From Naegleria gruberi (lineage: Eukaryota): DNA of 64,000 bases. Both the position numbers and the translations under genes were made by a program. Of the stretch, positions 1-64,000 are shown piece after piece (positions within the stretch are counted from its first letter, which is position 1; every line of letters begins with the position of its first letter). The stretch is taken from NCBI GenBank assembly GCA_000004985.1, contig GG738891.1. One strand, written 5' to 3'. The notes under the pieces are model-generated. The model was not told the DNA's origin. It did no database searches and saw only the letters and a list, made by a program, of their open reading frames with translations.

Positions 1-2026
1 CTTTTGAGAGCTTTTGATTAGCTCTTAAACCCCAACCTCTATTCTTAGTTTTAAAAACACATAATTTAACATTACTTCCTTTTTGCACAACCCTGTTGGG
101 ACAAGTTTCAGAGCACCCACAATCTCTATTGCACTCTAAAATTACATATTTTGTATCAATATCTCTTAACTTTCCACTGTTGTCGTAGTAAACTTCATCA
201 CCTCTTCTAACAGGATTGAATTGACTTGGATCAAATATGTCTGTTCTGAATTCTTGTTGAAGTCTGAGACATTTACAACCCTTTCCACACTTATTTTTAC
301 AATCACATGCTTCAGAGTTTTTAAGAGCTGCCATTACTTCTCTTTGGTCTTCTGTGATTCCTTCACCGTACGTGTTACTTGTTGCATAAGCAAATGGCTC
401 AAATTCAGAAAAATCAACTGCATTTACAACAGGTACGGCTGTCCTAGATTTACCAAGAGAAATATCATCAAAGTAGTAGAAATGAGGAGATCCTTTCTTT
501 TTTCCTAACAGCTCTGGTAAGGTTTCACCATTAATAGTCTTACTAACCATAGATCTTATATAATTAAAGTGCCTACGAATAAATCTCTTCTTATGGTTGA
601 TCAAGTCATCAATTTTGTTGCAGGGATCACTAGGGTCCCTGTTTAAATCATCGTCGTCGTCTTCGCCCTCACTGTCACTTACAGTTATTTTACCCTTATT
701 TGAAAGGAATGACTTGGAGTAAGGATATGCTGATACAGTCTTAGAAATGGCCTTGTCAATCAGCTTGTCAACGTTTTCTAGTGCTTGGTTCAAAATATTT
801 AAATCCATGGTTTCTTCAACATGGAAATTGTTGAACTCTTTCCAATTTAAAGACTTTTCCAAATCACATGCATGTCTCTTTTTTGACTTGATATACTTTT
901 TAATAACCTCTGGATCTCTTCCAAATGAAAGACACACAACGGTCAACCAGTGGACAGGCAGTCTGTCAAATACTTCATTTTTGGACAGCTCATCCAAAAC
1001 ATCCTTTTCTCGTTGAATGAGGTGTGTAGACTTTACAAGGGAACTAAATATTATCCATCTAGTATCCGTTATCACACCGATCATTTGCGATTTAAAATTA
1101 TCATAAACAATTTGAGAAACATTTTCAACTTCAATTATGCCTTGTAAAAATGAATTCAGATAAGACATGATTTGGTCGTGAAGGGCATGCTTTTGATAGT
1201 CGTCCACAACCTCCAAAGCAATTTCACAAGGAGAAGTCATAGAGTCAACTTGAATTGTTCTTTCATCATTTTCCCAATGTGTAATTGACATGTTTTTCTC
1301 TGTAGGTATTCTATACTTCATTCTGAAACCAAAATCACACCTGCTCTCTGTTATAAGAACAGGATTATTTGTGAAATACCCAATGACTGCAAAGTATTTT
1401 TGACCATCATTTCTAGGAGTACAACTTCCAAGATAGATTCCTTTAAATTCCTCAATGTAAACCTCACACAAATATTCAGTAGGATTAAATTTGTGAATTT
1501 GTTCCTTTAGTTGAAGTTTAAATCCAGAGTCACCTTCCCACTCAAACATTTCATGAATCATTTCTTTTTTAATTTCAAAGACCTCTGAGCTTGCATCTGC
1601 ACAAATGTCATAAACAGATGGAGGAATACTATTGTCCACTATAATAATATTCATAAAACTAATCATTTCCAAATACTTTTCCTTGATTTTCATTTGTAAA
1701 GGAGGAGAAATCTTGTTGTTATTACATCGGAACCCATGTCTTGTTAGCCACTCAATCGCACCAGACTTGGTAGAAAAGTTTCTACCGCTCATGTGTTCGA
1801 TCTGACTCCACAGTACGTCAATAGAAATAGCATCACCCTCCAACACTTGTAGAATAAATTTTAAAAAAGATAAAAAGTCTGGGGAATATTGAATTTTCTG
1901 TAATGCTCCACAAACATTTATATCAAATGTTGTTCGGATTGTTTTTTGCTTTTTTGTTTTAGAACCTGTTACCACAACATCAGAATCATCATCCGAACCT
2001 GATGATTGTTTGTTCCGTTTAGACAT
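1..2026 (-). CDS. SET-domain histone-lysine N-methyltransferase, SUV39/Clr4-like (partial; 3' end lies beyond the window edge)
   Basis: Uninterrupted minus-strand frame from the ATG (plus 2026..2024) to position 1, confirmed by manual translation of several segments. It is absent from the ORF track because no stop codon falls inside the window. The translation shows a pre-SET Cys cluster (CDCKNKCGKGCKC ... ECNRDCGCSETCPNRVVQKG) followed by the start of a SET domain (FKTKNRGWGLRANQ) at nt 1..60. No chromodomain is evident in the N-terminal half. Confidence 0.7.
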   Translation of the reverse strand, partial: MSKRNKQSSGSDDDSDVVVTGSKTKKQKTIRTTFDINVCGALQKIQYSPDFLSFLKFILQVLEGDAISIDVLWSQIEHMSGRNFSTKSGAIEWLTRHGFRCNNNKISPPLQMKIKEKYLEMISFMNIIIVDNSIPPSVYDICADASSEVFEIKKEMIHEMFEWEGDSGFKLQLKEQIHKFNPTEYLCEVYIEEFKGIYLGSCTPRNDGQKYFAVIGYFTNNPVLITESRCDFGFRMKYRIPTEKNMSITHWENDERTIQVDSMTSPCEIALEVVDDYQKHALHDQIMSYLNSFLQGIIEVENVSQIVYDNFKSQMIGVITDTRWIIFSSLVKSTHLIQREKDVLDELSKNEVFDRLPVHWLTVVCLSFGRDPEVIKKYIKSKKRHACDLEKSLNWKEFNNFHVEETMDLNILNQALENVDKLIDKAISKTVSAYPYSKSFLSNKGKITVSDSEGEDDDDDLNRDPSDPCNKIDDLINHKKRFIRRHFNYIRSMVSKTINGETLPELLGKKKGSPHFYYFDDISLGKSRTAVPVVNAVDFSEFEPFAYATSNTYGEGITEDQREVMAALKNSEACDCKNKCGKGCKCLRLQQEFRTDIFDPSQFNPVRRGDEVYYDNSGKLRDIDTKYVILECNRDCGCSETCPNRVVQKGSNVKLCVFKTKNRGWGLRANQKLSK

Positions 2027-2372
2027 TTTTTTATCGTTAAAAATTTTAAAATTAAAAAATTTGGCGGGAATATCATGATCCTTAACAGTGAAACCATAAA
2101 AGAATTGTCGTATGCTGAATATTGAGAAATTGAAAAAATCACCATCATGTTGAAAAAATAAACTCCTCCAGTATCTTCATGAGAATACATTTCAACTTAT
2201 TGAAGATCGTTGAGTGGAGATTCTGAACTGTATCTTGTTGGAAATGTATTTTGTTTTAAACTATTTCTCCAAATAAAATTTTCACACCAATTAAGGATTG
2301 AAAAACACTTACCATTACAGTTTCCATATTAAACTCTATAAAGGGCGAGCTTTTCGACTCTACCTTAAAAAA
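2027..2372. promoter_or_regulatory. Divergent intergenic region shared by the SET gene (-) and the secreted-protein gene (+)
   Basis: 346 bp between two divergently oriented start codons. The track ORFs here (1969..2190 -, 2298..2543 +) are spurious or an upstream read-through of exon 1. Confidence 0.35.
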
Positions 2373-3982: not shown

Positions 3983-4405
3983 ATGTCATCAAGAAAGCAA
4001 AGTGCCAAACCAAAAGCCAAATTCAACAAGCCAGAATATTGTTTGAATTTTAGTGCATCGGAAATGATAACAATAACATCAGAAGATGGTTTTCAATTTT
4101 ATATCGATAAGAGATGTGCTTCCTTTTGCAAAAGATTTAGAGAAGGTAAATAATCGTTATAATTTAATGGAGATAGGAAATACAAAAATATTATTACTAA
4201 TACAATAACAATAATCAAAACAGAAATTGATGAAGGAAAAACTGTAATTTGTGTAGACTATCCATCAAATATTGTTGAACAGGTTATTGAATACTTGTAC
4301 TATAAACAAAGATATGATAATGAAGCTGAGAATAGACCTGAATTTCCAATTGATTTATACAACGCTCTCGATTTGATGACTGCAAGTTATGCTTTGGGGT
4401 GTTAA
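3983..4405 (+). CDS. Elongin C (SKP1-fold transcription elongation / E3 ligase adaptor)
   Basis: join(3983..4145,4224..4405); 78-nt intron gtaaat..cag in phase 1. The spliced protein (114 aa) ends ...VICVDYPSNIVEQVIEYLYYKQRYDNEAENRPEFPIDLYNALDLMTASYALGC, closely matching the Elongin C C-terminus. The unspliced ORF is below the track threshold. Confidence 0.8.
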
Positions 4406-4409
4406 TTTC

Positions 4410-6578
4410 TTATTTCAAGAAGTTTTTATTGATTTCTGTAGCTATTTTAACCATTTCAATCTTTGAGTTATGTCTTCTATCGACAGGAAGTGATTTCTGT
4501 TGAACGAATCTAATAGCTATATTTGTAAATAATTTTGGAGCATTTGGAAGAACTTGTTTTCTCCAAAAATCTTCCATATCTGAAATGCTAATACTCTCAT
4601 TACCAAATGTCTCAAATACAATTGCAATTTCCTTAAATACCAATTCATTATATTTAGATGTGAAATTCTTTTCATTCATCTTAAGTTGTACGCTATCATT
4701 TCCACTGATTGGTGAATATCCTACACAAGCACATCTTCTAATATTTGAATACTTGTTGTAAAAGGCGTGTTCAATACAAGGTGGAGCTATCATGTGTTTT
4801 CTTTCATTTTCCAATGCAATATGGAACATGTGGCTCAATCTTCCACAATACCAAAGCATTTTGTTCTCGTCCATGTAGCCAATATCTCCTGTTTTGTGGT
4901 AAAGAATTCCATTTATCATCTCCTTACTTGTCTTCATTGCATTGTCGTCAAGCTCATATCTTGGACTAATGGCAGATCCACCAACCCAAATTTCACCAAT
5001 ATTGGATGTTGAAACATATTCTTGATTTCTAATCAAAATTGTAATGTTTGGACATTCCTTGCCAACACAATATCCCTTTGTAATACTGTATATTTCGCTA
5101 TCTGATGTGTAAATATTATCCAACTCATATGTATTAGTCAAACAAATGGGTAACCCCTCAGTAGCTCCATAAGTTGGGAAAATTGCTGGCTCACTTGATT
5201 CTTTTGAGGCCCATTTTCTTAATTTTTGATGAAGTGAATAAGGAGCTACAGAACCGCCACATAACAATACCTCCAGCGGTGGAGAGATAGTATTCTCTTC
5301 TTTGATTGACCCAGCAGCTTCATTCATTTTCTTGCAATAATCAATTACTTCCATCCATACAATAGGAGAGCAAAATCCCATTCTTGGATAAAATACATTC
5401 AAGGCGTTGATGTAGTGCTTGGAGTTAACACTAGCTGGGCTTGCCAAATTAAAAGGTGGAACAATTGCTGTCAATCCCATACAGTTTACACATAAAGTCA
5501 TTACTGTGTTGTGATTGATTACTCTGTCTTGTCTTCCTTTTATGAGATATGGCCTCATTAATTCGTTAAAGCTATATATTTGATTCTTTAACATTCCGTG
5601 AGTAATGTGAACAAGCTTTGGAATACCTGTAGTTCCAGTTGTATTGACAATAACTACAGTTTCGTCATCATCAAATTGGTAGAGATTTTCATCATTTTCC
5701 TCTGGTTCAATTTGTAGCTTTTCAACATTAACAATTTTTGTAATTTTCTTCCATTCTGGACGATTCTTGCTCAGTAAATTGAAAGCTCTATCAGAAGGTG
5801 TAAATAGCAAAACCTTTTTAGCAATATTGAGGAATTGTCTCTTTTTGAACAAGCTTGCGGCTTGAATCACTAAATAAATAAGTGGTGAAACAATTACAGC
5901 GTCAATATTCAATTTAGGAATCCACTCAAGGAAACTATCAATTCCACATTCATTAGGGTTCAATACAAGAATTTCTTGACCAGTTTGAATCAATGAAAAT
6001 ACCAATGGAACAAGTTGAATATCGTTTGGATCAACTAGAATAATGACTCTATTTTTGTTCTTATCCTTCAATTCATTTCCAATAACTCTATTATAAAATC
6101 TAATTGATTTTCTAACTTGATGAAAGGTCATTGAATTGTTTGTATCATTAATTTTGTAAAGATAATCAGCTGGATATAAATTGATTTTTCCAAGAGCAAA
6201 AAATATCAAAAAAGGTGTAAATAATAATGCCTTTTGATAACCTTCCAAATAATAAAACAGTAAAATGAAAATAGTCCACCCAGTCAAATAATAAATAAAT
6301 TTGTTAAATTTAACATTAGTTGGATAATGAAGAGCAGGTACTTCTGGATCTTTTTCCGCAACTTGTTCAAATAATTTTCCTAAAACATTATTAGGTTTGA
6401 TTTTTTGTTTAGATCGATCTCTTGGTGGAGGAAGAGGTGGTTGTTGAGCAATATTTTCTTGATCACTATCAATTGAAATTGTTGATTGTTCATAGCTTGC
6501 ATCTTCTTCATCGGAAAATTCAATTAAAGCTTCTTTTGTTTTACCAGAGGAAGCAATGCCTTCTCTTGAAATTGGCAT
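4410..6578 (-). CDS. AMP-dependent synthetase/ligase (long-chain acyl-CoA synthetase-like) with an acidic/Pro-rich, 2-TM N-terminal extension
   Basis: 722-aa single exon. AMP-binding P-loop motif NTTGTTGIPKLVHITHGML plus a downstream adenylate-forming core (YKTGDIGYMDENKMLWYCGR). The stop lies 4 bp from the Elongin C stop (convergent). Confidence 0.8.
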   Translation of the reverse strand: MPISREGIASSGKTKEALIEFSDEEDASYEQSTISIDSDQENIAQQPPLPPPRDRSKQKIKPNNVLGKLFEQVAEKDPEVPALHYPTNVKFNKFIYYLTGWTIFILLFYYLEGYQKALLFTPFLIFFALGKINLYPADYLYKINDTNNSMTFHQVRKSIRFYNRVIGNELKDKNKNRVIILVDPNDIQLVPLVFSLIQTGQEILVLNPNECGIDSFLEWIPKLNIDAVIVSPLIYLVIQAASLFKKRQFLNIAKKVLLFTPSDRAFNLLSKNRPEWKKITKIVNVEKLQIEPEENDENLYQFDDDETVVIVNTTGTTGIPKLVHITHGMLKNQIYSFNELMRPYLIKGRQDRVINHNTVMTLCVNCMGLTAIVPPFNLASPASVNSKHYINALNVFYPRMGFCSPIVWMEVIDYCKKMNEAAGSIKEENTISPPLEVLLCGGSVAPYSLHQKLRKWASKESSEPAIFPTYGATEGLPICLTNTYELDNIYTSDSEIYSITKGYCVGKECPNITILIRNQEYVSTSNIGEIWVGGSAISPRYELDDNAMKTSKEMINGILYHKTGDIGYMDENKMLWYCGRLSHMFHIALENERKHMIAPPCIEHAFYNKYSNIRRCACVGYSPISGNDSVQLKMNEKNFTSKYNELVFKEIAIVFETFGNESISISDMEDFWRKQVLPNAPKLFTNIAIRFVQQKSLPVDRRHNSKIEMVKIATEINKNFLK

Positions 6579-12614: not shown

Positions 12615-12630
12615 ATTTTCTAAAATAGTT

Positions 12631-14906
12631 TTATTTATTCAACAGCTTCATTAATCGTTCAGAATCTACTACAGATGCATCTTTTTCAAGTTTCTTTTTA
12701 CAAGTAAGGTAGGCACGTTCAGCTTGTGCAACAATATTGTTCAGCTCTATGGCTCCAGAAAGATCAATGCATGCCTTCAAAATATCATCAAATCTATACT
12801 TTTGTGTGACAACCTCGTTTCTAATTTTTTGTAACATGGCGTAACAGATGAAAAGATGGAAGTGGTTTCCATATATTCCAGTCCATAACTTTTCCCACAT
12901 ATTTTTGCATGATTCAAAATCAAACTCTCTTTTCAACTCCACTAACACCCATCTGAAACAGAAATACAAGTTAAGTGCATCAACAGATTGTAAGTGACGG
13001 TAGAATTCAGGATCAAGTAATTTGATCAAAGAAACCAATGACACTAATTGATCTTCCATTCCTTGAGAATTCATCTCAAAGTTACTTTGTCTAGTTTCCA
13101 TTATACAAGCAAAACACCAGAATGATTCTACTTCATCTTTCATAATTTCTAACATAATACTGGCATAATCTCCCATTCCTTGTACATAACTCAAATCAAA
13201 ATTGTAGAAAGTGTATGTCAACAGGATGTCATGTAACATAACCAACCATTCACTATCATCACTAGCATACATTGGATGAGTTCTGTCTGTTCTAATAACA
13301 TCCTTTTCTATTCTGCTCTTTCTGTCTCTATAAAGAGCAAATCTAGATTCTTGAATGGTAGAAATTGTTGTCCATTGAGATTTATAACCATAGTATTCCT
13401 TTCTCTTTTCCTCGAGCAGAACTTCTCTTTCACTATAGGTCGAGTTATGAGGATAAAATCCTAACAAGAATTTCCAAACTTCCTTTCTTATACTATTTTC
13501 AACTCCTCCATAGTAAATTTTTTCCTTAAGAGCTTGGAAATCCTTAATTCTACCTTCCTCATCAAAGTATGTCTTCCAAGATTCAGCAGTGATTGGAGTA
13601 TCCATTCTTGGAGTCCAACCAATATCTTCTGGTGATTCAATTTTAGGCTTTTGTTGTTGTACATCTATAACTTTGACTGGTTCAATATCGTTGAAATAAT
13701 CATCTACTTCCTTGTTTTCCTCTGGCAAATAATTATCATATATTGATTCCTTAAGAGATTCTCTTATTATAGGTGGTGGAACTTTCTTCTTGTCCTCTAA
13801 TTAACGATTAAGATCAAATGATATAATTTAACAAAAAACATACCTTCCATCTTTTGCCTTACTTTGAGTAAACTCATAGCAAGATTTTCCGAGCCTCCAA
13901 CTTTGTTATCTACTGAAAGTTCATCTGATTGATTGAATAGTGCACTTGTTAAATCTCTAGCTCCTTTTGTAATTTTACTTCCCCACTCCAAGATTTGCCA
14001 GTATCCATCCTTCTCCTTATACATATCATCAAAATAGTCATCAAAATTAAATTGGTTGATGGTTTTTGATGCTTCTGATGACTCTGCAGAAATGTAGTAA
14101 ATATTCTGATCTTTACTACTCTTTTTCAATGTCACTTGTCTATTAAATTCTGAAATGAAATCTACCAATCCACCATCATGGAAAAACAATGGAGGATAAG
14201 TTGTTTCATCTCTCATTGTGATTAAAAGAAAATGATATCCTAATTTTGGAGTTTGTTTTTTGAAATGAGAAATATCTACTGTTCTCACAACCAATGCGTA
14301 TGCTGATTCATTTCTTTGAACAAATGGGCTATTATTTTGACTTATATCTACAATACTTCCTTGTGATGGACTACTTGCTAAATTTGAGTTTGGAACTCTA
14401 TGAGAATATCTATCAGGTGTTACAATTTCTCCATTAGATCTTTCATGTAAAACTAAATCGCTATTAAAAGTACAAAGTGTTGAATATGGACACCAAACTA
14501 CATAATAACAAGATCTTAAAACTGGTTGTACATTAGATGTTTCAACAATAAGAGATTTAGCTGTCATTACACTTCTACCAGTATTTTCTGTAGTTTTTTC
14601 AGTCAAATCCCTCACTAAAAACATAGCACCAGGAATTTGGTCAACAATATCCGAACCTTTTTGATTTGTTGTTTGAATAGAAGTGTGGATATAGATATCA
14701 TCCTTTCTCACTACAATTGAATACTTTGAAGATGCTAAATTTTGAGAAGAAAGCAATTCCCTAATATTGGGAGTATCTCCTCTCACATAGAATGAACTTC
14801 CGAATGTTGAATCTGAATTAAAAACTACTTGTGGTGATCCTTCTTCACTTTCATCATCTGATGATTCATGATGATAAATCAAAACACTATTATTTAAATC
14901 ATCCAT
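12631..14906 (-). CDS. TBC-domain Rab GTPase-activating protein (TBC1D15/TBC1D17/Gyp7-like)
   Basis: join(complement 13844..14906, 12631..13796); 47-nt intron (gtatgt..ttag) in phase 1 joins track ORFs 13797..14924 and 12631..13728. The N-terminal exon resembles the TBC1D15 N-terminal domain. The C-terminal exon has the Arg-finger IRTDRTHP and Gln-finger YVQGMGDY of the TBC domain. The real ATG is at 14906; the track start is a TTG. Confidence 0.75.
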
Positions 14907-18851: not shown

Positions 18852-21633
18852 TTAAATAATAGGATTTTCTTTTAGAAATTTTCTGATAGAATCATATTCT
18901 CCTTTCGGGTGGGGTAAAACATCATCAAACTGATCAAAACTTAGGGTATATATAGTTCTTGGACCAGTTTGTTCAAGTGTTATTTCCTTCTCCCAATCTT
19001 CTTTTACATACAAATCCATAATTGATGGTCTTTGTTTTATCTCCTTCAAATGCTTCTTGCTAACTTGCTTTTTCAATTTCGTTTCAACAATATCATAATT
19101 CTTTTCGGCAACATCTTGTTTTTCTACTATATTTCCAAACATTGATTCACCAGGTGTATAGTTGAGTACCTTCTCTGCATCATTCTTGTTGAATAGACTG
19201 TTCTCTTTCAGTACTTGTCTAGCAGTTTGTTCATTAAATTCTTCGGATTGTTTTTGATGAAGTTTATACTCAATTCTTCTCGATGAATTGGGTATTATTG
19301 CTGGTGTATGTTGTGGAATGTCATACTCTGGTTCTGTATTCTGGGTTGGTTCAGTTTCAGCATCAGAGAAATGGTTGACTATCTTTACCTGATTAGAGGA
19401 TGATGATTTCTTCAGTGAGCTAGGTTTTGGCTTCTTTGGCACTAGAACCTCAATTTGAAGATTGGAACCTGAGTTGACTCTTGTTGTTTCTGGTTTGATA
19501 CGTTTTCTGAGTGGCTTACTAGCGTTAACTGGGGATTGAGATGCAATGACATCATCAATGATAACAGGCTTGGGGATTTCTTTCTCTCTTCGTATGACTG
19601 GCTTTGGAAGACTCTCAGTTATCTGTGGAGTTTGAATAAGCTCTTCATCTAGGGAAGGAGATTGTTTGTTAAATTCTGGAAGGGAATGAGTTTTGAGAAT
19701 GGGAGATGATTGTTTGGGCGGGGATTTCGTTTTTCTAATTTTGATAACCTGTGGCTCAGGAGTTAACATGTCTCTGTTTCTATCAATATCATTAAGGTCA
19801 ATACGATCGTCTTGAGGTTTGTTTGGAGTAAATTCTTGGCTCCATAGCATTTGGTCCATCGTTTGTGGTATTGTGGGATCCATATTGTCAGTAGATGGAC
19901 TTTTAGTTGGCTTTGGTACATTTCTAATCTCCCTTGGTAACGATATTGAGGATAAACTACTCATTACTGAGGTAACATCAGACAGCAGATCTTCATCAGA
20001 TGAATAATCGATAGTGTTAGGTTGTTGTTCTTCTTCTGTTAGCTCCTGTGCATGATCCTTCTCTTCGTGAGGGGAATAATATGACTGCATTTGTTTTGGA
20101 ACACTTTGTGGCCTAGGAGTTTCCAATGAAAAGCTCATGTTTTGATAAGACTCTTCTGGTTGCTCTGGTTGTTCGAGAGGGTATTCATCATAGTGATTTT
20201 CTTGTTGGTCTTTCTTGATAATTTGACTTATTATTTCATCAATCAGCCAAACATGACCCCTTCCATCCTTATCACAAGCTACCAAATGAGATCCTGGAAG
20301 TGGAATGGAGCTTTTTACATTAATACGATTGTCTTTCTTCATGCTAAATACTGTACAAAATAAAATAGGAGTTTCAAAACTATACTCCATTACCAAGAGT
20401 TGACCAATATAGAATTGCATTGAATTTGAAATAATCCTGTTATTCTTATCCCTGAATGAAACGGAAAACACGTTTACCATATCATTATTCATGAAAAAGC
20501 AAGTTACTGAATTCACAGTTATATTCTTTTAAAAGTCAATAAGTGAAATGAGAGTTTACATACAGGTTGATCTGAAATAATATAGTATGCTATTTGTAAA
20601 TTTAGTACTGTCTTTGAGTAAACGTCTTCAGACTCCTCATACAGATAAACTGTTCCTAGTTGATTACAAGCAATTAAAGATGACGAAGGCAAGAAGTCCC
20701 TCATTAGAGATAATGGACTCGATTCTAAAATGATTTGTTGAAGTAATTGTTGGTTTTCTATGTCGTGTCTGATTTACAATTAGATGAAAATTATTCCTTA
20801 ATTAAAACCTACATTAATAAAATTCCATCTTGTCCACCTCCACTCACTATAAATGGGTTCTTTGAGTAGCCACTTGTTGGTATTACAATGGCCACTTTTT
20901 GAAGAAATTGTTTTTTGTGTACACCTTTCAAAGACCAGGCCAATTCAAAAGACTCGTCTTGATTCATTTCAACACTCTCCTCTCTATGAATCCATACTTT
21001 TAAATCTCCATTAATTGATCCAGTTACTAAATAATTATTCTCCATGTCAAAACAAGTGATTTGATCTTGATGTTGAGCACATCCAAATACATGGGTCGAT
21101 CTGGCAAATAAACTATCATTCTCATAATATGTTTTTCCAAAGTGTACCACAGAGTAGAACATTTTGTTTGAATTTTGCTGTAAAAAGCAAATTTTGTATG
21201 CTGGACATCCATGATAGCATGGAGGCTCATCTTCCTCATTCTCAAATAAAATCCTTGATTTATAAGTCCTAGGTGTTGATAATTGATTATTAGAAATGAA
21301 TTTGAACTGTTTCCATGGTGTATTCAGAGGAATGATATCACCTTCTGATTCTACAAACAATTTGTAAATTGCATATTCATTTTGTTGTATGTTGAAAAGT
21401 CTAATTATTAGACAAGGTCACTCTCTACAACTGCAAACAAATACTCACTTTAAATAACCCTTATTATCCGATATACCAATAACTTCATCTTCAGTATGAA
21501 GAGATGGTACTTGATAGATTGTTGTAGTATAATCCTTAGTTGATGCATCCTCTGCATACCGATCCAGATAAAAATCCTCATCAATCCTTGCCAATCTAAA
21601 GCCAACCTGTTGTTCACTGCTTGTTTTCTGCAT
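18852..21633 (-). CDS. WD40-repeat protein with a long acidic/Pro/Ser-rich C-terminal tail; 4 exons
   Basis: join(complement 21449..21633, 20813..21400, 20564..20768, 18852..20525); introns of 48, 44 and 38 nt (gtgagt..ttag, gtaggt..tcag, gtatgt..aaag), all phase-consistent. They join track ORFs 21445..21666, 20809..21360, 20519..20704 and 18852..20516, whose track starts are GTG/TTG. WD-like blocks include ITCFDMENNYLVTGSINGDLKVWI, FIVSGGGQDGILLIHD, IACNQLGTVYLYE and LVACDKDGRGHVWLID. Confidence 0.6.
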
Positions 21634-21658
21634 TTTTTCTTTTTTTAAACTTAAAAAT
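21634..21658. promoter_or_regulatory. 25-bp spacer between the divergent start codons of the WD40 gene (-) and the GET1/WRB-like gene (+)
   Basis: ATG of the minus-strand gene is at 21633..21631; ATG of the plus-strand gene is at 21659..21661. 5'UTRs and promoters must overlap. Confidence 0.4.
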
Positions 21659-22293: not shown

Positions 22294-22575
22294 TTAGTTT
22301 TGCTTGTTGTTAACGGCAGCCTTTGGGGTGCTTCCGACCTTCCATCCGTTTCTTTCTCTTCTCAAAGCGAGCTTCAAATAACGACATCTACCAGTACCAG
22401 TGGTGTTTCTTCTAATAGCCTTATAAGCCCATTGGTACTTTCTGATCTTTGGTGATGGGAATCCGCAAGAAGCACAAGTCTTCTTTTGAATATGGTAAGA
22501 TCTTCTATCACATCTTGGACACATACCGTGTGTCTTGGTGTGTCTCAAACCGAATGATTGGGTACCCTTGGTCAT
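22294..22575 (-). CDS. rpl37: 60S ribosomal protein L37 (eL37)
   Basis: [68 protein letters not shown]... with the C4 zinc-ribbon motif. A probable 42-nt 5'UTR intron (plus 22579..22620, gtaagt..ttag) ends 2 nt before the ATG. Confidence 0.85.
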
Positions 22576-43100: not shown

Positions 43101-43484
43101 ATTACTTAAAGATGGAGTGATAAGATTTGTAGAGCTGATCAATGAATTTACGAAGAGTTTCTGTTTTTCTTCCGAGATGGAAATTTGTTCATTCATATTA
43201 GATTGAAGTCTTTTCCAATCCTTAGTTCTTAGTTGATTAAAGTCTTGTTGTACGGATATGATGGTGTTTCTAAAATTTACTGCCTGTTCTTCTAACAATT
43301 TCTTAAATAATGTAAATTGTTCTTCTATTAATTCATGTTGAGCAACGGCTGTTTCCTCCTTCTTTTCATTCAACAATACTTCCTTCACAATATTTCTTCG
43401 TTGTTCATCATACTCCTCCGAAGATATAAAACCCTGATTTAATAATTCCTTGAGAAGGAATAAGGTTTGTAAATGTTCCTTCAT
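37194..43484 (-). CDS. Giant (2096 aa) coiled-coil protein with internal tandem repeats
   Basis: Single 6.3-kb ORF, ATG at 43484..43482. Heptad-rich with E/K/L/N/Q/S/I-dominated composition throughout. Overlapping plus-strand track ORFs (39246.., 39772.., 39979.., 40435.., 41086.., 41181.., 41344.., 41785..) are low-complexity antisense artefacts. Confidence 0.75.
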   Translation of the reverse strand: MKEHLQTLFLLKELLNQGFISSEEYDEQRRNIVKEVLLNEKKEETAVAQHELIEEQFTLFKKLLEEQAVNFRNTIISVQQDFNQLRTKDWKRLQSNMNEQISISEEKQKLFVNSLISSTNLITPSLSNTSYSSIDTQDRDSGSLHVTSDSLDEIKVELLSKFDNIDKRIRGFMENTKEYIDKSIIQVKQDFLEHKQQQNEAKHEILELLNKKIDLSVDSLTLSNEKAFTEIEEHKKDLAKALETATGVQKEFNSSLSNLKRELFDYMNTTLREELIKTMNRGDEFVLKSASEVARQYMDLKVEKLEHDLQKTNVHLKDEASNLKEGVQATKSSTEKIIHNLKQDMIASHSRLQNDVQEKVSDVQKILNESEMELISEISALNVKFDSETLTLSDNLENARNEMKTNLSKHEVEVNRILTVNKEELLTKSDNLKKEMDTKIQTQQQHIVKLEQDVNSKQKLNDARFENVSKKLVEANTNLNEKTNKLEQSLMKEINANKTSAEEQVRTVSKKLDSDISSVKSDIINREKDTNSKIDKKFIDLKSMINTSKTDLETSMTKQKEELKKNITQTSQTLEKTIEDKSNTLQNDLESFKKESKDLINKNKENSDEAITSVKKSLNNEVKDLKSSIESETQQINKKIENNSTTSQQQYNENSEGIRKLKDSVSDVEIGLKNSISDTTFRLERLKEENSLLKESAEKLRKGLDDFKVLLDDMKIQTNKDLGDIQRDLEQSTSDTSKKQEDTITKIKKAEEELNEKIEAIKKQITEHVKKTDVSNMEESINKKISSVVSTTETLQEQSKSAHHKIDTVSTALKEHSQSSDSKIENIIGITDSLKQDTKSVINRFEKLIQDTKSEIDTSLKKINDLMNSLNDNQKQKLKDEIETLEKSVKLEIKEKISDIYDKIRLESVRPQQLTLTTERVDALKKEFENIRDNSLEKFSTVNDKIEKLLKFKEEQAEATKTVATKTDLETVKNDSKENSKGIEDAKQQIKKIETNLQPALESIKKLEGSNTETISKIEILNNKTQEIVKQIANSSEILVRVEKDSSDKIERISENVNSLHENVNETKAELNEKIASSLDVNAIVEEKLKSAQEQLSNTIDEHVKISTQSLEKSVTTLEMDVATLKNDTTTSREELKGLIETNNTSTEQQFDEKILSLKNDIENVKDTMMTSVQQMNSSILDVRNTASEIIESVESVKQTLPIDTISKMEVSIEEIRKEELLLEDKINGVKNDVDNINQSLTTSIQQMNQSISDVRNTATEIVNSVDLFKNSIPIDTISNMEVSMEEIRNELEENEKDDQNTKELLKKLNEDQQEIHQKLTESSNKVQELNTNLNDLKESHDSVKKLADQFEDKIAERISKLDTENYNKLKTKLDEMETIVNGTVSDVAVKVTNLEGEVIKGKDEVDQLKKSQSDILRKIENVVSSVSTMENENINIKANQEESQNQLQEVSKKMDNVVSETSLGEKVQQVVAEEIKKVEDQITSTEEKVKSHDERISSLTTQVESQEKLLESHKEEIKSAKDGVKAITNSENKINELQNSVINIQEKQNELSNEVVDIKSKLPLEKIGKIEESLDQIRKDIQENEKDDNETKNELKDIQNKLDENIKKVNDINKTEMDESISSLKSSIENVKDTMTTSIQNMNESISEVRATASDIVNSVLDIKNSLPIDRLATIEVSIEDLRNELEENEKDDQNTKEALKKLNENQEEIQNKLNETSKSVEEMKEKFAESDKLVQDLKNSSENILTVDSNIITALQEDNTKIKGDIKSHFDVYELDSKCNNMILEDLQKFKTETSDILSNLKEKRDNDAMKKQIEENQTAITGLKEVIDKITIQTLSDLKTQVESLISKENQSVQDENLKKYSEMVQQIQTQLQELDKKKLDIESLEKREVELKENIISTFKQNQENEIKVQLDKEIAPTLSQIKEQSETLSSLRKTIDDEVLGKISKNVEQITQIEAKITEMGLNNGKDDLIECIKLLEDEVKQDVLQKLEEEKKNLDKVSKELTETIQNVSKQVEEMKNEQESSANDQSEISKNMFEKISTCFSKINSIGLQCDSVAQTTKDQMFFIVNKIQEMEQSKLELIQKIVRENNQM
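38290..40010 (-). repeat. Intragenic tandem duplications (about 300-nt units, roughly 75-85% identical) inside the coiled-coil gene
   Basis: Three copies of the module IENVKDTM(M/T)TS(V/I)QxMNxSIxxVRxTAxxIVxSV...LPIDxxxxxEVS(I/M)E(E/D)(I/L)RxE (about 39800..40010, 39490..39790, 38290..38600). Two to three copies of LEENEKDDQNTKE(L/A)LKKLNExQxEIxxKL (about 39540..39620, 38360..38450, variant 38700..38800). Confidence 0.6.
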
Positions 43485-45457: not shown

Positions 45458-47182
45458 ATGTTCATCACAAGCAAATTGACTCGTATGAATCGCTTGATTG
45501 CTTCCAATCAAAATGCAACCAATGTACTTTTAAAATCTTCACAACAACGTTTATTTTCTACCTTAAATAATCAAATTCGTAATTCCCAATTTGAAGATGA
45601 AGAAACTAGTGAAACCAAGACTGAAGAAGAAAAATCAATTGAAGAAATTTTGAGAACTAAAACATCATTAACACCAAGTGAAATTGTTTCTCAATTGGAT
45701 AGGAATATTGTCGGACAAGCTGATGCTAAGCGTGCTGTAGCTGTTGCTTTAAGAAATCGTTGGAGAAGACAACAATTGGATTCCTCTATCAAGGATGAAA
45801 TTATTCCTAAGAATATTCTCATGGTTGGTCCAACAGGGTATGTTTTTTAATGCTAGTTATTATTATATATTTTAATATTTAAATCATATGATGGTTGTAT
45901 TGTCAATAATAATTATTAATCTTTCTATTTTACATATTATTCGACACATAATAATACTAATAATAACAATACTATTTACATGAAATATCAAATTCTAATA
46001 ACAATAATACATCCGATTTTAATAATATTATTAATCCTATATAGTGTTGGTAAGACTGAAATTGCCAGACGTTTAAGTAAATTAGCCAATGCCCCATTTA
46101 TTAAAACAGAAGCAACTAAATACACTGAAGTTGGATTCCACGGAAGTGATGTAGATAGTATTATTCGTGATTTGGTTGAAGTTGGTATTCAACACACAAA
46201 GGATAGATTGAGAGCAGCATATAAAACTAAAGCTCGTGAATTTGCCGAAAATAAGATTATTGAAACATTGACTGGTAAAAAGAAGAATAGTGATGAATCT
46301 CTTTTCAATGAGTGGAGAAAACAATTGAGGAGTGGAGTATTGGATGATAAAGAAATTGAAGTTGAACTTCCAGTTGAAAAACCAAGAGGATTACCTGGAG
46401 CAGGAAATATGCAAGGAAGAATGCCACCACAAGTTGATATTCAAGATTTATTATCTCCATTGTTTGGTGGAAGTGGAAGTAAAACTAAGAAACGTAGAAT
46501 GAAAATCAAGGAATGTCTTCCAAAATTAGAAGAAAGTGAAGTTGACAAATTATTACAAACTGATGTTGTTATCAAGGAAGCTATTCGTTCTGTTGAAGAA
46601 GATGGTATTGTTTTCATTGATGAAATTGATAAGATTTGTAGTTCTTATAAGGATAGACATGATGCTTCATCGGAAGGTGTTCAACGTGATTTACTTCCAA
46701 TTATTGAAGGAACCACTGTTAGTACAAAATATGGTAATGTAAAGACTGATCACATTTTGTTCATTGCATGTGGTGCTTTCCATAGTGTTAAACCAAGTGA
46801 TATGTTGGCTGAATTACAAGGTAGATTGCCAATTCGTGTTGAATTGAAGGGATTGACTGAAAAGGATTTCAATAGAGTTTTGACTGAACCTGAAACAAAT
46901 ATTTTAAGACAAAATATTGAATTACTCAAGACTGAAGGTGTTGATTTGGAATTCACTCCTAGTGGTGTTAATGAAATTGCTAAGGTTGCCTTTGAAGTTA
47001 ATACAACAATTGAAAATATTGGTGCTCGTCGATTGATTACCATTGTAGAAAAGATTTTGGAAGAAATTTCATTCAATGCTCCAAGTATGAGTGGTCAAAA
47101 GGTTGTCATAACAGATAAGGAAGTTCAACAACATGTTGGTGCATTGTTGAAGAAGTCAGATTTGAAGAAATTCATTTTGTAA
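45458..47182 (+). CDS. hslU: ATP-dependent protease ATPase subunit HslU (mitochondrial-type, with N-terminal presequence)
   Basis: join(45458..45837,46045..47182); 207-nt intron gtatgt..atatag in phase 2 splits the Walker A motif (MVGPTG|[10 protein letters not shown]). Collinear with bacterial HslU ([30 protein letters not shown] ... [11 protein letters not shown] ... [38 protein letters not shown] ... [11 protein letters not shown] ... NIGARRL) and ends ...KKFIL like E. coli HslU. The track start 45980 is an artefact. Confidence 0.85.
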
Positions 47183-50852: not shown

Positions 50853-50857
50853 AAAAG
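50853..50857 (-). terminator. RNA polymerase III terminator T-run immediately 3' of the tRNA
   Basis: Minus-strand ...TGACTCCA|CTTTTG: a TTTT run begins 1 nt after the discriminator base. Confidence 0.45.
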
Positions 50858-50893
50858 TGGAGTCATAGGGAATCGAACCCTAGACCTTCTGCA

Positions 50894-50924
<31 letters not shown>

Positions 50925-50930
50925 AACCCC
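50858..50930 (-). tRNA. tRNA-Ala (anticodon UGC)
   Basis: Minus-strand sequence GGGGTTATAGCTCAGTTGGTAGAGCGTCTGCTTTGCATGCAGAAGGTCTAGGGTTCGATTCCCTATGACTCCA folds as a cloverleaf: 7-bp acceptor stem with the G3:U70 Ala identity pair, D arm GCTC/GAGC, anticodon stem TCTGC/GCAGA, loop TTTGCAT (anticodon TGC), T arm TAGGG/CCCTA with TTCGATT loop, discriminator A. A and B boxes are present. Confidence 0.9.
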
Positions 50931-51183: not shown

Positions 51184-53163
51184 ATGCGTTTGTTCATACC
51201 AAATTCAACTCAAAACAAATTTCATAATACATCAACAACACTAACAATGAACAACCATGAAACTGTACTCTGTGAAGGAACTTTAGACATGTTTGATGCT
51301 CCATCTTTTACTAGCATCAATATTAGTAGTAATTCTTCATCTTCTCCGTCATCTAATTCTCCATCACTTGTTTTTCATCTTTCAACATCATCCGACTTTC
51401 AAACATCTGAACAAACCAAACAAAGTTCAAGTGGAAAAAGATCTAAATCAAAGGCAAAGAAGAGGAAAGTTATTTTGGATGAGGATGATGAACGTGATTA
51501 TGAGGAGTGTGATTTTATTTTGGAAATNNNNNNNNNNNNNNNNNNNNNNNNNNNNNNNNNNNNNNNNNNNNNNNNNNATGCTGATAGTCAGATTCCAACA
51601 ACCATTGTTCAGGCTATTTTGGATGTTGTAGCTGCTTCTATAAATCCACCACCTCAACAACCTCAACCAACACAAGAAGAACAAGCCTCCACAACTAATT
51701 CTAATGAACAAATTTCATCATCCGAAGGTATAGCTGAATCAATAACAACTAGTGATGATAATACACTTCAATCAGAACCAGCCATGCCAAAGCCTATTGA
51801 GGCTACTCAAACACCACCAACTGCAGCATCCACCATTGAAGCAAAACTTTCAAGCCAATCAACAAATAAGATTCTTGATGAACTTTATCGTGGATTGAAT
51901 ATATTCTATGATGAAGGTGCAAATGGACAATATGTACCTAGAACAATAATGGCAGATTTAGATCATTCATCACTTGATTCAATAATGTCTAATCAAGAAA
52001 TTGGTAAATGGTTTAGACCAGATTATTCATTAGGTAGTACAGGTAGTAGTGGTAATAATTGGGCTAAAGGTTATTATACAGAAGGACCTGAATTGGCAGA
52101 ATTAGTTATGGATGTTGTTAGAAAATCAGCAGAAAGTTGTGATTGTATTCAAGGATTTCAAATATTTCATTCAATTGGAGGTGGATGTGGTTCAGGAATG
52201 GGATGTTTCATAACAAATAGACTTCAAGATGAATATGGTGGTGCAATGATTATGACAAATTCTGTATTTCCATCTACAAAAACTGTTGATAGTGTTCTTG
52301 CACCTTATAACTCTGTTTTAACTTTACATCACTTGATTGAAAATGTTCAAATGGTTAATTGTTTTGATAATCATGCTCTTAATCAAATTAGTCAAAAATT
52401 ATTTAGAATTGAATCACCTGAAATGGTTGATTTGAATGAAATTGTTGCACAATCTGTTACAGGTATGTTGTTTTATAGAATGATTATGATGACATTTAAA
52501 TCATTATTAATATACTATTAAGGTATTACAAGTTCATTTAGATTTTCAGGTATTATAAATTCAGATTTACGTAAAATGGCAACCAATTTAGTTCCATTTC
52601 CAAGAGCTCACTTTTTCATGAATTCATTATCACCATTAGGAAGTTCATTTGATAATTCAGATCTTAAAGTTGAACAAATTACAAGTCAATTATTTAATCC
52701 AAATCATTTCCTAGTTGATGCCAATCCAAAGAATGGTAAATATTTAACAGCAAGTGTTATATTTAGAGGAGATGTTAGTTCATCATCAGCAGAAGAACAA
52801 GTTAATGGTATTCTTCAAAGAGATTCTTCTTACTTTTACAAATCAATTCCAAATAATTTACAAACTTCTATATGTAAAGTTGCACCACCTGGTATTAAGA
52901 GAACAGGAACTTTAATTGCTAATTCTACTTCTATTTTAACTATATTTAGACAATTATCATCTTCATTCTCAATGTTATTTAAGAGAAAGGCTTTTATGAA
53001 ATCATTTGAAATTGAAGGAATGGATGAATTGGAATTTTCAGAAGCAATTTCAAATCTTAATGATTTAATAGCTGAATATGAATTACAAGAATATGAACAA
53101 GATAATCATATTAATGTTGATGATGAAGAATTGGGAGGAGGAGAATCTGAACATGTTGAATAA
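51184..53163 (+). CDS. Divergent beta-tubulin-like protein with a Ser/Thr/Pro/Gln-rich N-terminal extension, interrupted by a scaffold gap
   Basis: Model join(51184..51527, gap, 51578..52462, 52523..53163); 60-nt intron gtatgt..ttaag in phase 1 gives ...SVTG|ITSSFRFSGIINSDLRKMATNLVPFPRAHFF, collinear with beta-tubulin [32 protein letters not shown]. The tubulin body is recognisable from about beta residue 45 (LNIFYDEGANGQYVPRTIMADLD...GSSGNNWAKGYYTEGPELAELVMDVVRKSAESCDCIQGFQIFHSIGGGCGSGMG ... RKAFMKSFEIEGMDELEFSEAISNLNDLIAEYELQEYEQD). The N-terminal GQCGNQ T1-loop region is absent. The GGGTGSG signature reads GGGCGSG. Confidence 0.7.
51528..51577. other. Assembly gap (50 N) inside the tubulin-like gene
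   Basis: Run of n characters. The true length is unknown, so the N-terminal exon structure cannot be fixed. Confidence 0.95.
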
Positions 53164-56859: not shown

Positions 56860-57075
56860 TTATTATTGATGAAGATTAATTATTCTTGTAATACTTACAT
56901 CATCATTATGATTAATAAACAATTTGTTTTTGTTTACTTCCGATGAGCCTTACAAGTCAAAATCACCCATCATAATTATTAAATTCAATAATTGATGATA
57001 TCTTCTTCATCTTCATCAAATAATAAATAAATATATAATAAATATATAATAAATAACAAAAATTTAAAACATGAT

Positions 57076-58769: not shown

Positions 58770-60470
58770 ATGAGTGATCCAGTATTATTATCATCCAATC
58801 ATCATCAACATCATCAAGATGATGATACTAGTGCGTCACATGAAATGGTTGAATTCACATTATCTCATCCAAACAGTTCAACTACATCACTTCCTAATCA
58901 TCAACATCATCGTGCCATGATGACATCACAATCATCATTCCAATCCACAAGTACCTCAAATCATGATGATTTAGAATTGGGTCATCGACCACAATTAAGA
59001 GTTGCAGAGAGTGAAATATTTGATCAACATTTATATCCACCCAATGATGATTCATCCTCTGCTGATCATTCACCTACTCCGACTACCTTAGTGGATGGTG
59101 ATGATCAACCTACAAGATTATTAAATGGTACATCTATTAATACTACTAATACTACTAATACTGCCACTGGTGGTGGTTGTGCTTCTACTACTATAAAGTC
59201 ATCAACAAATAATTATGGTAGTACTACTAATAGTACTTCTAATGTTATTAAGAATGTTAATAATACCAATACTACCAATGGTAACTCTACTACTCTTACT
59301 ACAAAGGGACGTTCATCATCCATTGCTAAACAACAACCAGCAACACCACTCACTAGAAAAGCAGCTATTAAACAATATTTCCAAAGAAAATATTTAAGTT
59401 TTGAACATCATTTAGTTTCACGTTCAGCTAAACATAGAGATTCTGAATATAGATCTCAATTAGAATTAATTACTGCCATTGATGAACATTGTGATAGTGT
59501 ACTACATACTTATAGTAGTTTTAGAATGTTTATATTATCATTGATGGGTGGTATTTATGTTTCTATTGCAACCTTATTGACAGGTTTAATTTCATCTGAT
59601 ATATCAAGTAAGGCTATGCAAAAATTCATGACTGGTATTGCATTTGTTGGTGGTTTTACAATGATTATATTTAGTAAGAGTATTCTATTTACAGAAGTTA
59701 ATATATCTGTTAGTGTTCATTTATTTAAAAATGATTTAATTGGTATTATTAGAAGAAGTGTCTATTGGGTTATTAAGGGAATATTCAGTTGTTTTAAAAA
59801 TCATTTACATATTAAAATTAGAAGACCACATAAGAGTATTAAATTAATTACACTTTTAAATTCTATTAAATTATGGAGTATTTCCATAGTTGGGAATATA
59901 TTAGGTACAGTGATGATGTCAGCAGTATTAGGAGCATGTTTCTCATGGTATGACAGTCAATCTATGGTACAATATTTGAGTGCATTAACTAAACACAAAT
60001 TAGATATTTTCATTGAAAGAGGTGCAAGTGGATGGTTTAGTTGTTTATTAAGTGGAATGGTTGCTAATTTCATGATTGGTGTTGCTTCTTTATTATGTAC
60101 TGCTGGTACTACTATTATTGGAAAGATTTTAGCTTTATTCTTCCCTATTATTGCTTTTGCTGTATGTTTTATTTATTATTAATATTAATTATTTATATAA
60201 TCTTTTTATGGTAATATTTCAATACTATTTATTTAGGCATTGGGTGTACAACATGCACCTGCTAATGTTGGATATTTCTCACATATTTTCATTTGGGATT
60301 CCATGTATGGTAATACTACTAATTTAACAATTACACCTGAAATTAATTATGTTATGAATTCAGTTGAATGGTATGATGGTTTAGCATGGAATTTAATTCC
60401 AGCTGCAATTGGTAATGCTTTGGGTGGTTTCTTCTTGGCATTTGTTTTTGTTTTTGTTTTTATTAAATAA
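58770..60470 (+). CDS. Formate/nitrite transporter family protein (FNT), copy 1, with a 270-aa low-complexity N-terminal extension
   Basis: join(58770..60161,60237..60470); 75-nt intron gtatgt..tttag in phase 0 joins track ORFs 58770..60182 and 60240..60470 (FFPIIAFA|ALGVQHAPANVGYFSHIF, corresponding to the FNT signature around the second half-helix). Six TM helices. The N-terminus is Ser/Thr/Asn/His-rich and contains the motif SEIFDQHLYPP. Confidence 0.75.
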
Positions 60471-60959
60471 TATTTAAATATAAAAGGAATTATTTAAAAA
60501 TAATACTCTCCTCTCATATATTATAAATGTTAAAAATAAAGTTTTATATTTTTAAAAATTACTTGATTAATTACAATCTTATCAAGAAAACATCAATACA
60601 TATAAGAGTTTTAAACATAAATATTTAAATGACCTTATTAGAAACCAATCTCATTCCATCAAATACTAAAATGATATTTACTCTAATCAAAATTATTAAT
60701 CAACAACTCAACACTATTCTCTCACTCAAGTAGTAAAATTCAATACCAAGTAGTAAATTACATCAATAACAACAGATAGATAATATCTAGGTTACAATAG
60801 CTTTCAATTAAACATCAATAAGTAGTGAAATGGATAATAATAAATGGATAATTAACCCAATTTGTAATTTAATGTTCCCAAAGGTCTGACTTTAAATTCT
60901 AAAGCGAAAAATAATCTGAAATAAAAAACAAAACAATAACATCAATATTGAATATCAAT

Positions 60960-62777
60960 ATGACAAGTGACAGTGGTGCATTGAGTACTTCATCTGTTTC
61001 TTCAACAATAGTTGATACAAATAATATTAATAATACAGTTAATACAAGACAACAACAATTAAATAATAATAATACTAATCCATATGGATCATCACAAAGA
61101 TTAGCACATTCACATCATCCACGTGTTCATCATCCTCATAATATTCATCATCATAATAATAATAATATACGTAAAGTTATGAGTCAATTAAGTATTAATA
61201 GTCAACAACAACAACAACAACAATATAATAGTAATGAACAATTATCATCTCTATATAGTATTGATAATAATAATATTATTAACATGTCTTCTAATAATAA
61301 TTTAAATAATTTGAATAATAATAATTTGAATAATAATAGAATTCATTCAGCACAATCATTTAGTTCACTTTCATCTTATTATAGAGATGATGAACATCCA
61401 CAACAACGTCATGTTCATTATTTTGATAGTGATGAATTTGATCAACATTTATATCCACCACCAATAATAATAATAATAATAATATACTTACTAAGAATGG
61501 TAAAAATAATGTTCATTTTGATACTAATGAAGATGATGAACAAGGACATTATCATGGTCATCATCATGAACATGAATTAGATGATAATCATCATCATCAT
61601 ATTATTGATCATCACCATGACCATCATCACCATCATCATCATGAAGATGATCATTGTGCTCATACTACTACCAATAATAATAATACTATTAAAAGTAGTA
61701 ATACTTGTTGTGGTGGTGAAGAAAATCCAATTATTGTTGGTAAATATCATCCAACAACAATGAACAAATCACCTCAATTAATTGAACATGAAGCGCAACT
61801 ACATGAACAACATGAACAATCCATCAATAATAGAAAAGAAAGAAATCCCTTAAACAATATTTCAACAAGAATATTAGGATTGAAGTGNNNNNNNNNNNNN
61901 NNNNNNNNNNNNNNNNNNNNNNNNNNNNNNNNNNNNNTTTGTATCAATTGGTACTTTATTATCTGCTCTAATTTCATCTGATATTACTACTAAATCATTA
62001 CAAAAATTTATGATTGGTATTGCATTTGTTGGTGCATTTACAATGATTATATTTAGTAAGAGTATTCTATTTACAGAAGTTAACATATCTGTTAGTGTAC
62101 ATTTATTTAAAAATGATTTAATTGGTATTTTTAGAAGAAGTATATATTGGTTATTTAATAATATATTTACTTGTTTTAAAAATCATTTACATATTAAAAT
62201 TAGAAGACCACATAAGAGTATTAAATTAATGACATTATTAAATTCTATTAAATTATGGAGTATAGCTATATTTGGTAATATATTAGGTACAATATTAATG
62301 TCAGCAATATTATCAGGTAGTTATGTATGGTATGATAATCAAAGTGTTATTCAATTTTTAAGTTCAACAACTAAACATAAAATTCATACATTTGAAGAGA
62401 GAGGTGTTAATGGATGGTTTAGTTGTTTATTAAGTGGAATGGTTGCTAATTTCATGATTGGTGTTGCTACTTTATTATGTTCTTCTGGTACTACTATTAT
62501 TGGTAAAATTATTGCTTTATTCTTTCCAATTATAGCATTTGCTGCATTAGGTGTACAACATGCACCTGCTAATGTTGGTTATTTTTCTCATATTTTCATT
62601 TGGGATTCTTTATATGGTTCAACTAGTAATATTACAATGACAAGTGAAATTAATTTTGTAATGAATGAAATTCAATGGTATGAATCTATTTATTGGAATT
62701 TAATTCCAGCTGCACTTGGTAATGCTTTGGGTGCTGTCTTTTTAGCTTTTATATTTGTTTTTATTTTTGTTAAATAA
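60960..62777 (+). CDS. Formate/nitrite transporter family protein (FNT), copy 2 (tandem paralogue): intronless, interrupted by a frameshift and a scaffold gap; possibly a pseudogene or an assembly error
   Basis: ATG at 60960 (track start 60948 is a TTG). Frame 0 up to about 61465, including the motif DEFDQHLYPP. The reading frame then shifts into a His-rich stretch (HYHGHHHEHELDDNHHHHIIDHHHDHHHHHHHEDDH) that runs to the N gap (61888..61937). After the gap the FNT body (62010..62777 in the track) is 80-90% identical to copy 1 and reads through FFPIIAFAALGVQHAPANVGYF without an intron. Confidence 0.55.
61540..61665 (+). repeat. CAT/CAC (His-codon) microsatellite-like tract
   Basis: catcatcatgaacatgaa...catcatcatcatattattgatcatcaccatgaccatcatcaccatcatcatcatgaagat, encoding a poly-His/Asp tract in FNT copy 2. 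Confidence 0.6.
61888..61937. other. Assembly gap (50 N) inside FNT copy 2
   Basis: Run of n characters. The frame changes across it, as expected for an arbitrary-length gap. Confidence 0.95.
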
Positions 62778-62799
62778 ATATTTTAATTATTAGGAATAT

Positions 62800-64000
62800 A
62801 TTATTTTTAATTTTTAAAGAAAAGAGAGCTATTCAACTTTGTCCATTAGTTTAATAATCAAGTTTACACATCAATGAAAAGCACAATATTAACTTGAATA
62901 GGAGTTCATTGAGTTATCTTTAAACATGGAATGCAAATGGATAGGAATCTAAGGATGATAATAATTTAATCATTTCTTCATTCTCAGTTGGAAGTGTAAC
63001 TTCGAGTGGTGATAAGAAATCATTCACATTCACTAACGTTGCTGGAAATGTTGGCACTCAAACATTTACCTATGTAAGCTAATGCCAATTATTACATTAT
63101 CTCACAAATTGATATCAGAATCAGTGGTTTCATTCTTGAACAGTAAAACAAGATCAATTTAGTTAATTTAGTTGATTCAAGGCCTGCAACATAATAGAGG
63201 ATCCAATGCTCTTATTCTTGAAACTGCATTCTTGTCAGCTTTAATACTAGAATCACACACGCGTTCCTGCAAGTTTGTTCGCTACTACAACACTGCAGTA
63301 AATATAGCAGTTTTACTTGGAAGAATATTAGACAACATAATGTAATAATAAGATAAGTATATAACAATAGCTAGTCTATGAACAACCGGGTATGAAGTAA
63401 TAAACTTATTAATAAAACATCTTACCATTAGAGTAATATGTGAAATACTATTCTAATTGGCAAACCGTAATAGTACACCAATATATATATGTTCTTTGCA
63501 AATCCAACATTGTGTGACAATCGTTTAGTATAACGAATAGCATTCCTTGTATTTGCTTATTAACGGTAGCTTAATGTAATTCGCATGGTGTTGTGGTTTG
63601 AGGAATGTTATTAATATGTATTATTGTTCTAAATCTTGAGCAGTTGATATGTATTGTTGTTAGATGAGTGTTGAACTATCCTTTTGACAGTATGCAAACG
63701 ATATCGGGTCTAAAGTTTTAGCCTAAGTTTATCTCTTGTCATTATTTACTTTTATTTGAGACAACAGGCTCCTATCTGGATGCTCCATGTTCCACTATGC
63801 GGCTTTAAACACTTGTCTAGAAATATGTGCGAGTGGTGGAAAGGCCAGATTAATCTCCATCTCTGTAAAATTATCATTTTTGATCACATGACCCTTTATT
63901 GTCTCAATTTTATTGAACCAATTTTTTAGATAATGAACCAAATCCTAAAATAATTCATCCATTGGAAATTCGCTCCATAAATTTTCTTGACAAAATTCAC
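62800..64000. other. Compositionally distinct terminal region with no long ORF (possible multi-exon gene fragment, degenerate mobile element or ncRNA locus)
   Basis: No ORF of 60 aa or more on either strand over 1.2 kb, in a window where genes otherwise occur every 1.6 kb. GC is higher and GC-rich codons (ggc, ctg, cgc, acg) appear in short open segments, e.g. 62988..63073 flanked by tctcag| and |gtaagc, and 63180..63350 (LIQGLQHNRGSNALILETAFLSALILESHTRSCKFVRYYNTAVNIAVLLGRILDNIM). Confidence 0.3.

Follow-up and report, generated by a model that had tools for sequence, protein, structure and literature searches.

A 64-kb window attributable to the published Naegleria gruberi NEG-M nuclear genome

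Origin of the window

Judging from its encoded proteins, the window analysed here (the whole stretch of 64,000 nucleotides) is almost certainly an already published nuclear segment of the heterolobosean amoeboflagellate Naegleria gruberi NEG-M. Exact look-up of 20 sequences retrieved deposited N. gruberi NEG-M proteins that are residue-identical to 11 proteins whose genes span 4.4 to 57.5 kb of the window, namely BBS8, an AMP-binding enzyme, PABP, NAEGRDRAFT_51685, a kinase, RPB8, a MORN protein, MTP18, eL37, an F-box protein, and spliced HslU. The genes of all 11 lie on a single N. gruberi scaffold of 339,217 nucleotides (nt), and the accessions of the identical proteins ascend in two series, EFC40605-40616 for the plus strand and EFC40675-40687 for the minus strand. 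The window also contains two runs of exactly 50 N (51528-51577 and 61888-61937), which look like scaffold gaps of an assembled record and which had been overlooked in an earlier reading made from the letters of the DNA (the sequence-only reading). Taken together, the exact protein matches, the single scaffold, and the 50-N gaps argue that the window was taken from the NEG-M draft assembly as published.

As such, the window is a gene-dense stretch of NEG-M nuclear DNA, in which some 35 protein genes are distributed over the two strands. Many of these are single-exon genes, and others are cut by short AT-rich spliceosomal introns with the borders GTA(A/T)GT...AG. One tRNA gene of the RNA polymerase III (Pol III) type is also carried, and translation follows the standard code. 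The NEG-M (ATCC 30224) draft genome is reportedly that of Fritz-Laylin et al. 2010. The draft was obtained by Sanger sequencing and comprises 40.9 Mb with 35% GC, 1,977 scaffolds, and 16,620 genes (PMC9928731). The window resembles it in being AT-rich and gene-dense, in its short introns and N-filled scaffold gaps, and in the 11 identical proteins; it differs in nothing substantive, the local GC being below the mean and several of our own exon models having no exact deposited match. Its biology is likewise that of the published N. gruberi genome, including flagellar genes of the BBSome, a mitochondrial-type HslU, transporters of the FNT family, and divergent tubulins. The sequence-only reading had described a eukaryotic, AT-rich, flagellum-capable protist and had listed Naegleria first among the genomes for comparison. 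Given the exact NEG-M matches and the known flagellate stage, this eukaryotic reading is correct, yet already known.

The nearest database relatives were then compared. Across 564 residues, the product of the BBS8 open reading frame (ORF) matches NAEGRDRAFT_80979 of N. gruberi with 100% identity, followed by N. lovaniensis (84%), Willaertia magna (77%), and Acrasis kona (62%). For HslU, the next relatives are N. fowleri (81%), Willaertia (74%), Acrasis (58%), and the ‘mitochondrial HslU’ of Andalucia (57%), and then alphaproteobacteria. The best-hit taxonomy of the translations, which the sequence-only reading had proposed as a check, thus places N. gruberi first, with Naegleria, Willaertia, and Acrasis behind. 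As protein identity drops with phylogenetic distance, we counted this gradient for an N. gruberi origin.

Several observations weigh against assignment to NEG-M. The GC content of the window is 30.5%, lower than the reported genome mean of 35%, and falls to 24% near 50 kb. Nine of the 20 looked-up sequences have no exact deposited protein, and either our own or the deposited models differ there. Moreover, no N. gruberi genomic record was returned for BBS8 or spliced HslU, so that the match is one at the protein level. The contig search with RPB8 likewise returned a single 2-kb metagenome contig from ENA and no N. gruberi genome record.

This 2,024-nt contig (ENA ERZ929261, run ERR1078381, PRJEB11402) is 97.9% identical to window positions 57047-59057, and its encoded RPB8 is identical. 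The near-identity indicates that a very close relative of NEG-M was present in that environmental sample. Close relatives exist, and the PABP cluster also includes non-identical 572-residue Logan variants, both of which speak for a source in another strain of the N. gruberi group, or in another Naegleria species or heterolobosean such as N. fowleri, N. lovaniensis, or Willaertia magna. Nevertheless, we consider such a source very improbable. The three named species do hold BBS8 and HslU orthologues, which are the next-best matches, but at a protein identity of only 74-84%, against 100% for the 11 NEG-M entries. Even the near-identical environmental strain has 15 mismatches and 15 gap openings over 2 kb, i.e. 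2% of nucleotides differ.

BBS8, HslU, and the placement of introns

The BBS8 and HslU genes are as follows:
33020..34714, plus strand: BBS8/TTC8 (BBSome subunit), single exon, identical to NAEGRDRAFT_80979
45458..47182, plus strand: HslU (mitochondrial-type AAA+ ATPase), spliced 505-residue product identical to XP_002673356.1

Residues 48-564 of the BBS8 protein align with residues 2-501 of the BBS8 chain in PDB (6vbu_8) with an E-value of 9.3e-156, and the next TPR subunit, BBS4, reaches 1e-20. Its database neighbours carry TTC8/BBS8 names and come from flagellated lineages. The BBS8/TTC8 call of the sequence-only reading is hence upheld. As N. gruberi changes from amoeba to flagellate (PMC2115128, PMC9081340), one would expect a BBSome subunit in its genome, and the argument from BBS8 to a flagellum holds. 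If the protein were instead a generic TPR protein, the source of the window could be a dictyostelid or some other AT-rich amoeba that lacks a flagellum; the high AT content, the tracts rich in Asn, and the A-rich context of the starts, all of which resemble Dictyostelium, would suit this view. The nearly full-length BBS8 alignment and the exact protein matches to N. gruberi leave this view a negligible probability.

The HslU gene is interrupted. Its first ORF ends with ‘...MVGPTG’ followed by GTATGT, and the second resumes with ‘VGKTEIARR’ after ...TATAG. Removal of the 207-nt intron 45838-46044 restores the Walker A motif GPTGVGKT, which is split as GPTG|VGKT. The spliced protein aligns unbroken with bacterial (E. 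coli) HslU from residue 69 to its final residue 505, and over these residues it matches HslU at ~1e-134 versus ~1e-39 for ClpX. Ahead of the aligned region lies an N-terminal extension of ~70 residues, and mitochondrial targeting of the protein is putative. HslUV is reported to be absent from animals, fungi, and plants, and to be a mitochondrial protease in some protists (PMC7050145); the sequence-only reading had said as much of animals and fungi. The window HslU resembles that of Andalucia godoyi, described as mitochondrial (PMC7050145), with which it shares 57% identity. It differs from the protist mitochondrial HslUV protease in that the window does not include the HslV partner.

The HslU and FNT genes recognised in the sequence-only reading are present, FNT in two copies, and together with YhhN they are families of bacterial type. 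The window HslU is also 57-58% identical to alphaproteobacterial HslU. A bacterial origin, or a ciliate-type code with reassigned stop codons, is nonetheless the least credible of all the readings considered. Both HslU and one of the FNT genes are interrupted by spliceosomal introns, the relatives of HslU in eukaryotes carry a mitochondrial annotation (PMC7050145), and the window encodes subunits of the spliceosome, RNA polymerase II, and the BBSome. In addition, all three stop codons terminate genes, and the conserved proteins have no in-frame stops.

We placed eight GT..AG introns in the window:
4146-4223, plus strand: 78 nt, GTAAAT..AG, Elongin C, putative
11663-11706, plus strand: 44 nt, E2F, removal restores a second winged-helix domain
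13797-13843, minus strand: 47 nt, RabGAP-TBC gene, putative
20526-20563, minus strand: 38 nt, weak-WD40 gene, putative
28882-28926, minus strand: 45 nt, TPR-MYND gene, putative
45838-46044, plus strand: 207 nt, HslU, spliced product identical to the deposited protein
52463-52522, plus strand: 60 nt, beta-tubulin-like gene, contiguous beta-tubulin alignment after splicing
60162-60236, plus strand: 75 nt, formate/nitrite transporter paralogue 1 (FNT1), gap-free alignment with an intron-less paralogue

Seven of the eight donors read GTA[A/T]GT, and all eight acceptors are AG. The GC fraction of the introns is 0.11-0.26, compared with 0.31 in coding sequence. Their lengths have the same extremes, 38 and 207 nt, that the sequence-only reading had given for GT..AG introns. 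That of HslU is established, being the only one whose removal reproduces a deposited protein exactly, and for the other seven the exact borders are inferred. The E2F, FNT1, and beta-tubulin-like introns are backed by restored domains or an intron-less paralogue. Specifically, E2F_TDP is found in one stretch in the unspliced E2F gene and in two after removal of the 44-nt intron (E = 6.6e-31). Two E2F_TDP winged-helix domains are the architecture of the atypical E2F7/8/DEL factors. The Elongin C, RabGAP, TPR-MYND, and weak-WD40 introns are proposed from frame continuity and splice signals.

The spliced models of Elongin C, E2F, FNT1, RabGAP, and TPR-MYND have no exact deposited protein, which neither confirms nor refutes them. 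Likewise, no exact deposited protein was found for SNRNP40, IPPT, the 2,096-residue protein, YhhN, and 34745-36505, each looked up as a plain ORF. For these unmatched genes, the fault lies either in the 2010 models or in our own junctions or starts. A related case concerns the MORN gene, whose deposited model starts at 55141 (ORF 55141-56859). A further MORN-repeat ORF lies ~50 nt upstream on the plus strand (54749-55090) and may be a missed 5' exon of this gene; no strong GTA[A/T][G/A]T donor linking 54749-55090 to 55141-56859 was found.

Genetic code, tRNA gene, and the bacterial-rule ORF list

Confirmed genes end mostly with TAA, and TAG and TGA are used too, and conserved proteins run through without in-frame stops. 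Hence the genetic code is the standard one, as the sequence-only reading had concluded from the C-termini of homologues; HslU indeed aligns to the last residue of its bacterial counterpart. In the window, 27 stretches of 300 codons or more are free of stops, versus none in 20 composition-matched shuffles. The aaaaATG start context reported earlier also recurs. Most starts confirmed by protein identity have an A-rich context, which reads aaaaaaaaATG for BBS8 and RPB8. Dictyostelid, ciliate, and bacterial origins, which the sequence-only reading had dismissed, were rejected here too on the basis of introns, stop-codon usage, and exact and best matches to N. gruberi.

One RNA gene is carried:
50857..50930, minus strand: tRNA-Ala(TGC), ARAGORN; Rfam 72.2 bits

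It is the tRNA with a Pol III T-run described before, and the only match in the Rfam search of the window. TTTT follows directly 3' of the gene, and no CCA is encoded. Both features fit a eukaryotic gene transcribed by Pol III.

The list of ORFs made under bacterial rules uses TTG or GTG starts at 20516, 21360, 14924, 15218, 17130, 27341, 49634, 50832, and 60948, and we reproduced every one that the sequence-only reading had pointed out as GTG/TTG read as M. Neighbouring same-strand ORFs carry halves of one domain family. The listed TTG and GTG starts are artefacts of the bacterial rules. At the edges of exons, a bacterial ORF caller invents such starts, and it breaks spliced genes into pieces; this explains the odd ORF track and its divided genes. 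The value of the present analysis is therefore one of quality control. Bacterial ORF rules (table 11, TTG/GTG starts, no introns) are not valid for the window, and readings of it based on such ORFs need to be redone with spliced eukaryotic gene models.

Assembly gaps and remaining gene content

The tubulin and FNT genes in the region of the two N runs are:
51604..53163, plus strand (with the upstream ORF, 51184-53163): divergent beta-tubulin-like gene, Pfam Tubulin and Tubulin_C on two ORFs
58770..60470, plus strand: FNT1, Pfam Form_Nir_trans, with the 75-nt intron
60948..62777, plus strand: formate/nitrite transporter paralogue 2, interrupted by the N gap 61888-61937

One gap lies within the beta-tubulin-like gene and the other within the second FNT gene, which leaves the models of both incomplete in the assembly. 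The spliced beta-tubulin-like product aligns contiguously to residues 46-435 of yeast beta-tubulin (6e-122). The assembled sequence lacks the initial ~45 residues of the GTP-binding domain and has a Ser-rich extension in their place, and the upstream Ser-rich ORF is broken by the gap at 51528-51577. The N-terminal motif GQCGNQ of beta-tubulin was not found anywhere in the 64-kb window. The N-terminus could be missing as an artefact of the gap, or the tubulin could be truly aberrant. Highly divergent ‘bonus’ beta-tubulins have been described for N. gruberi (PMC9081340), and the window gene fits this description. Local annotation issues of this kind, comprising a possibly aberrant beta-tubulin, the candidate upstream MORN exon, and possibly mis-modelled 2010 genes including E2F, TPR-MYND, RabGAP, FNT1, and Elongin C, would be the only openings for novelty, a prospect that we regard as doubtful.

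The two FNT paralogues are in tandem and are 78% identical over the transporter core. Spliced FNT1 aligns gap-free across its junction to paralogue 2, which is intron-less at that site. At the N-terminus, both paralogues are extended by a long stretch of low complexity that is rich in His, Asn, and Thr.

Outside the genes described above, the window encodes:
2..2026, minus strand: 5' part of a SUV39/Clr4-type H3K9-methyltransferase-like gene, stop-free for 725 codons, running off window position 1
3983..4405, plus strand: Elongin C, two exons, PDB Elongin-C 5.7e-6, aligned to the C-terminus
4410..6578, minus strand: AMP-binding enzyme, single exon, Pfam AMP-binding, identical to XP_002673419.1
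6748..8463, minus strand: PABP, four RRM and MLLE, identical to XP_002673420.1
10267..12614, plus strand: E2F-family gene, E2F_TDP in the unspliced ORF 10267-11700
12631..14906, minus strand: RabGAP-TBC gene, Pfam RabGAP-TBC, putative intron 13797-13843
18852..21690, minus strand: putative multi-exon gene with a weak WD40 signal, split in the ORF list into GTG/TTG-start pieces
22294..22575, minus strand: ribosomal protein eL37, Pfam Ribosomal_L37e 6.4e-26, identical to XP_002673425.1
23002..24135, plus strand: SNRNP40 (U5 snRNP 40-kDa), WD40, best PDB match human U5-40K (3jcr_D, 3e-84)
24125..25597, minus strand: tRNA isopentenyltransferase (IPPT), Pfam IPPT 2.7e-57
25725..27341, minus strand: main exon of a sirtuin (SIR2), Pfam SIR2, its TTG ‘start’ an artefact
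27805..30147, minus strand: putative TPR and zf-MYND gene, two listed ORFs joined by the proposed intron
37194..43484, minus strand: 2,096-residue protein, coiled-coil-like by sequence, single ORF of 2,096 codons
57076..57546, minus strand: RPB8 (RPABC3), Pfam RNA_pol_Rpb8 4.4e-49, identical to XP_002673431.1

Further genes encode PIG-X, a protein kinase, YhhN, MTP18, the MORN-repeat protein, and an F-box protein. Eukaryote-specific machinery is represented by SNRNP40, RPB8, eL37, PABP with its MLLE domain, Elongin C, E2F, and BBS8. These gene identities are firm. Among the hallmark genes named in the sequence-only reading, Pfam and PDB matches bear out Elongin C, SNRNP40, RPB8, PABP, eL37, and E2F, and SUV39 in part, for the pre-SET region. 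In the SUV39-type ORF, Pfam Pre-SET is matched at 2.5e-15 and the best PDB matches are Clr4, DIM-5, and SUV39H2 (1.5e-13). Inside the window lie only the Pre-SET region and ~25 residues at the start of SET, the rest of SET and post-SET lying beyond position 1, and a chromodomain was not detected in the visible 725 residues. This gene and eL37 were located by stop-to-stop ORF listing; simple motif searches for eL37 and SET had found nothing.

The protein encoded by 37194-43484 is rich in Glu, Lys, and Ser and contains internal repeats, e.g. ‘...NVKDTMTTSIQ.MN.SI..VR.TA..IV.SV...K..LPID...’. Stop-free stretches of at least 150 codons make up ~82% of the window. The GC fraction is ~0.32-0.34 in the left half versus 0.24-0.30 over 36001-64000 and is lowest at 48-52 kb (0.235), and the low-GC region overlaps low-complexity coding tracts rich in Asn, Thr, and Ser.

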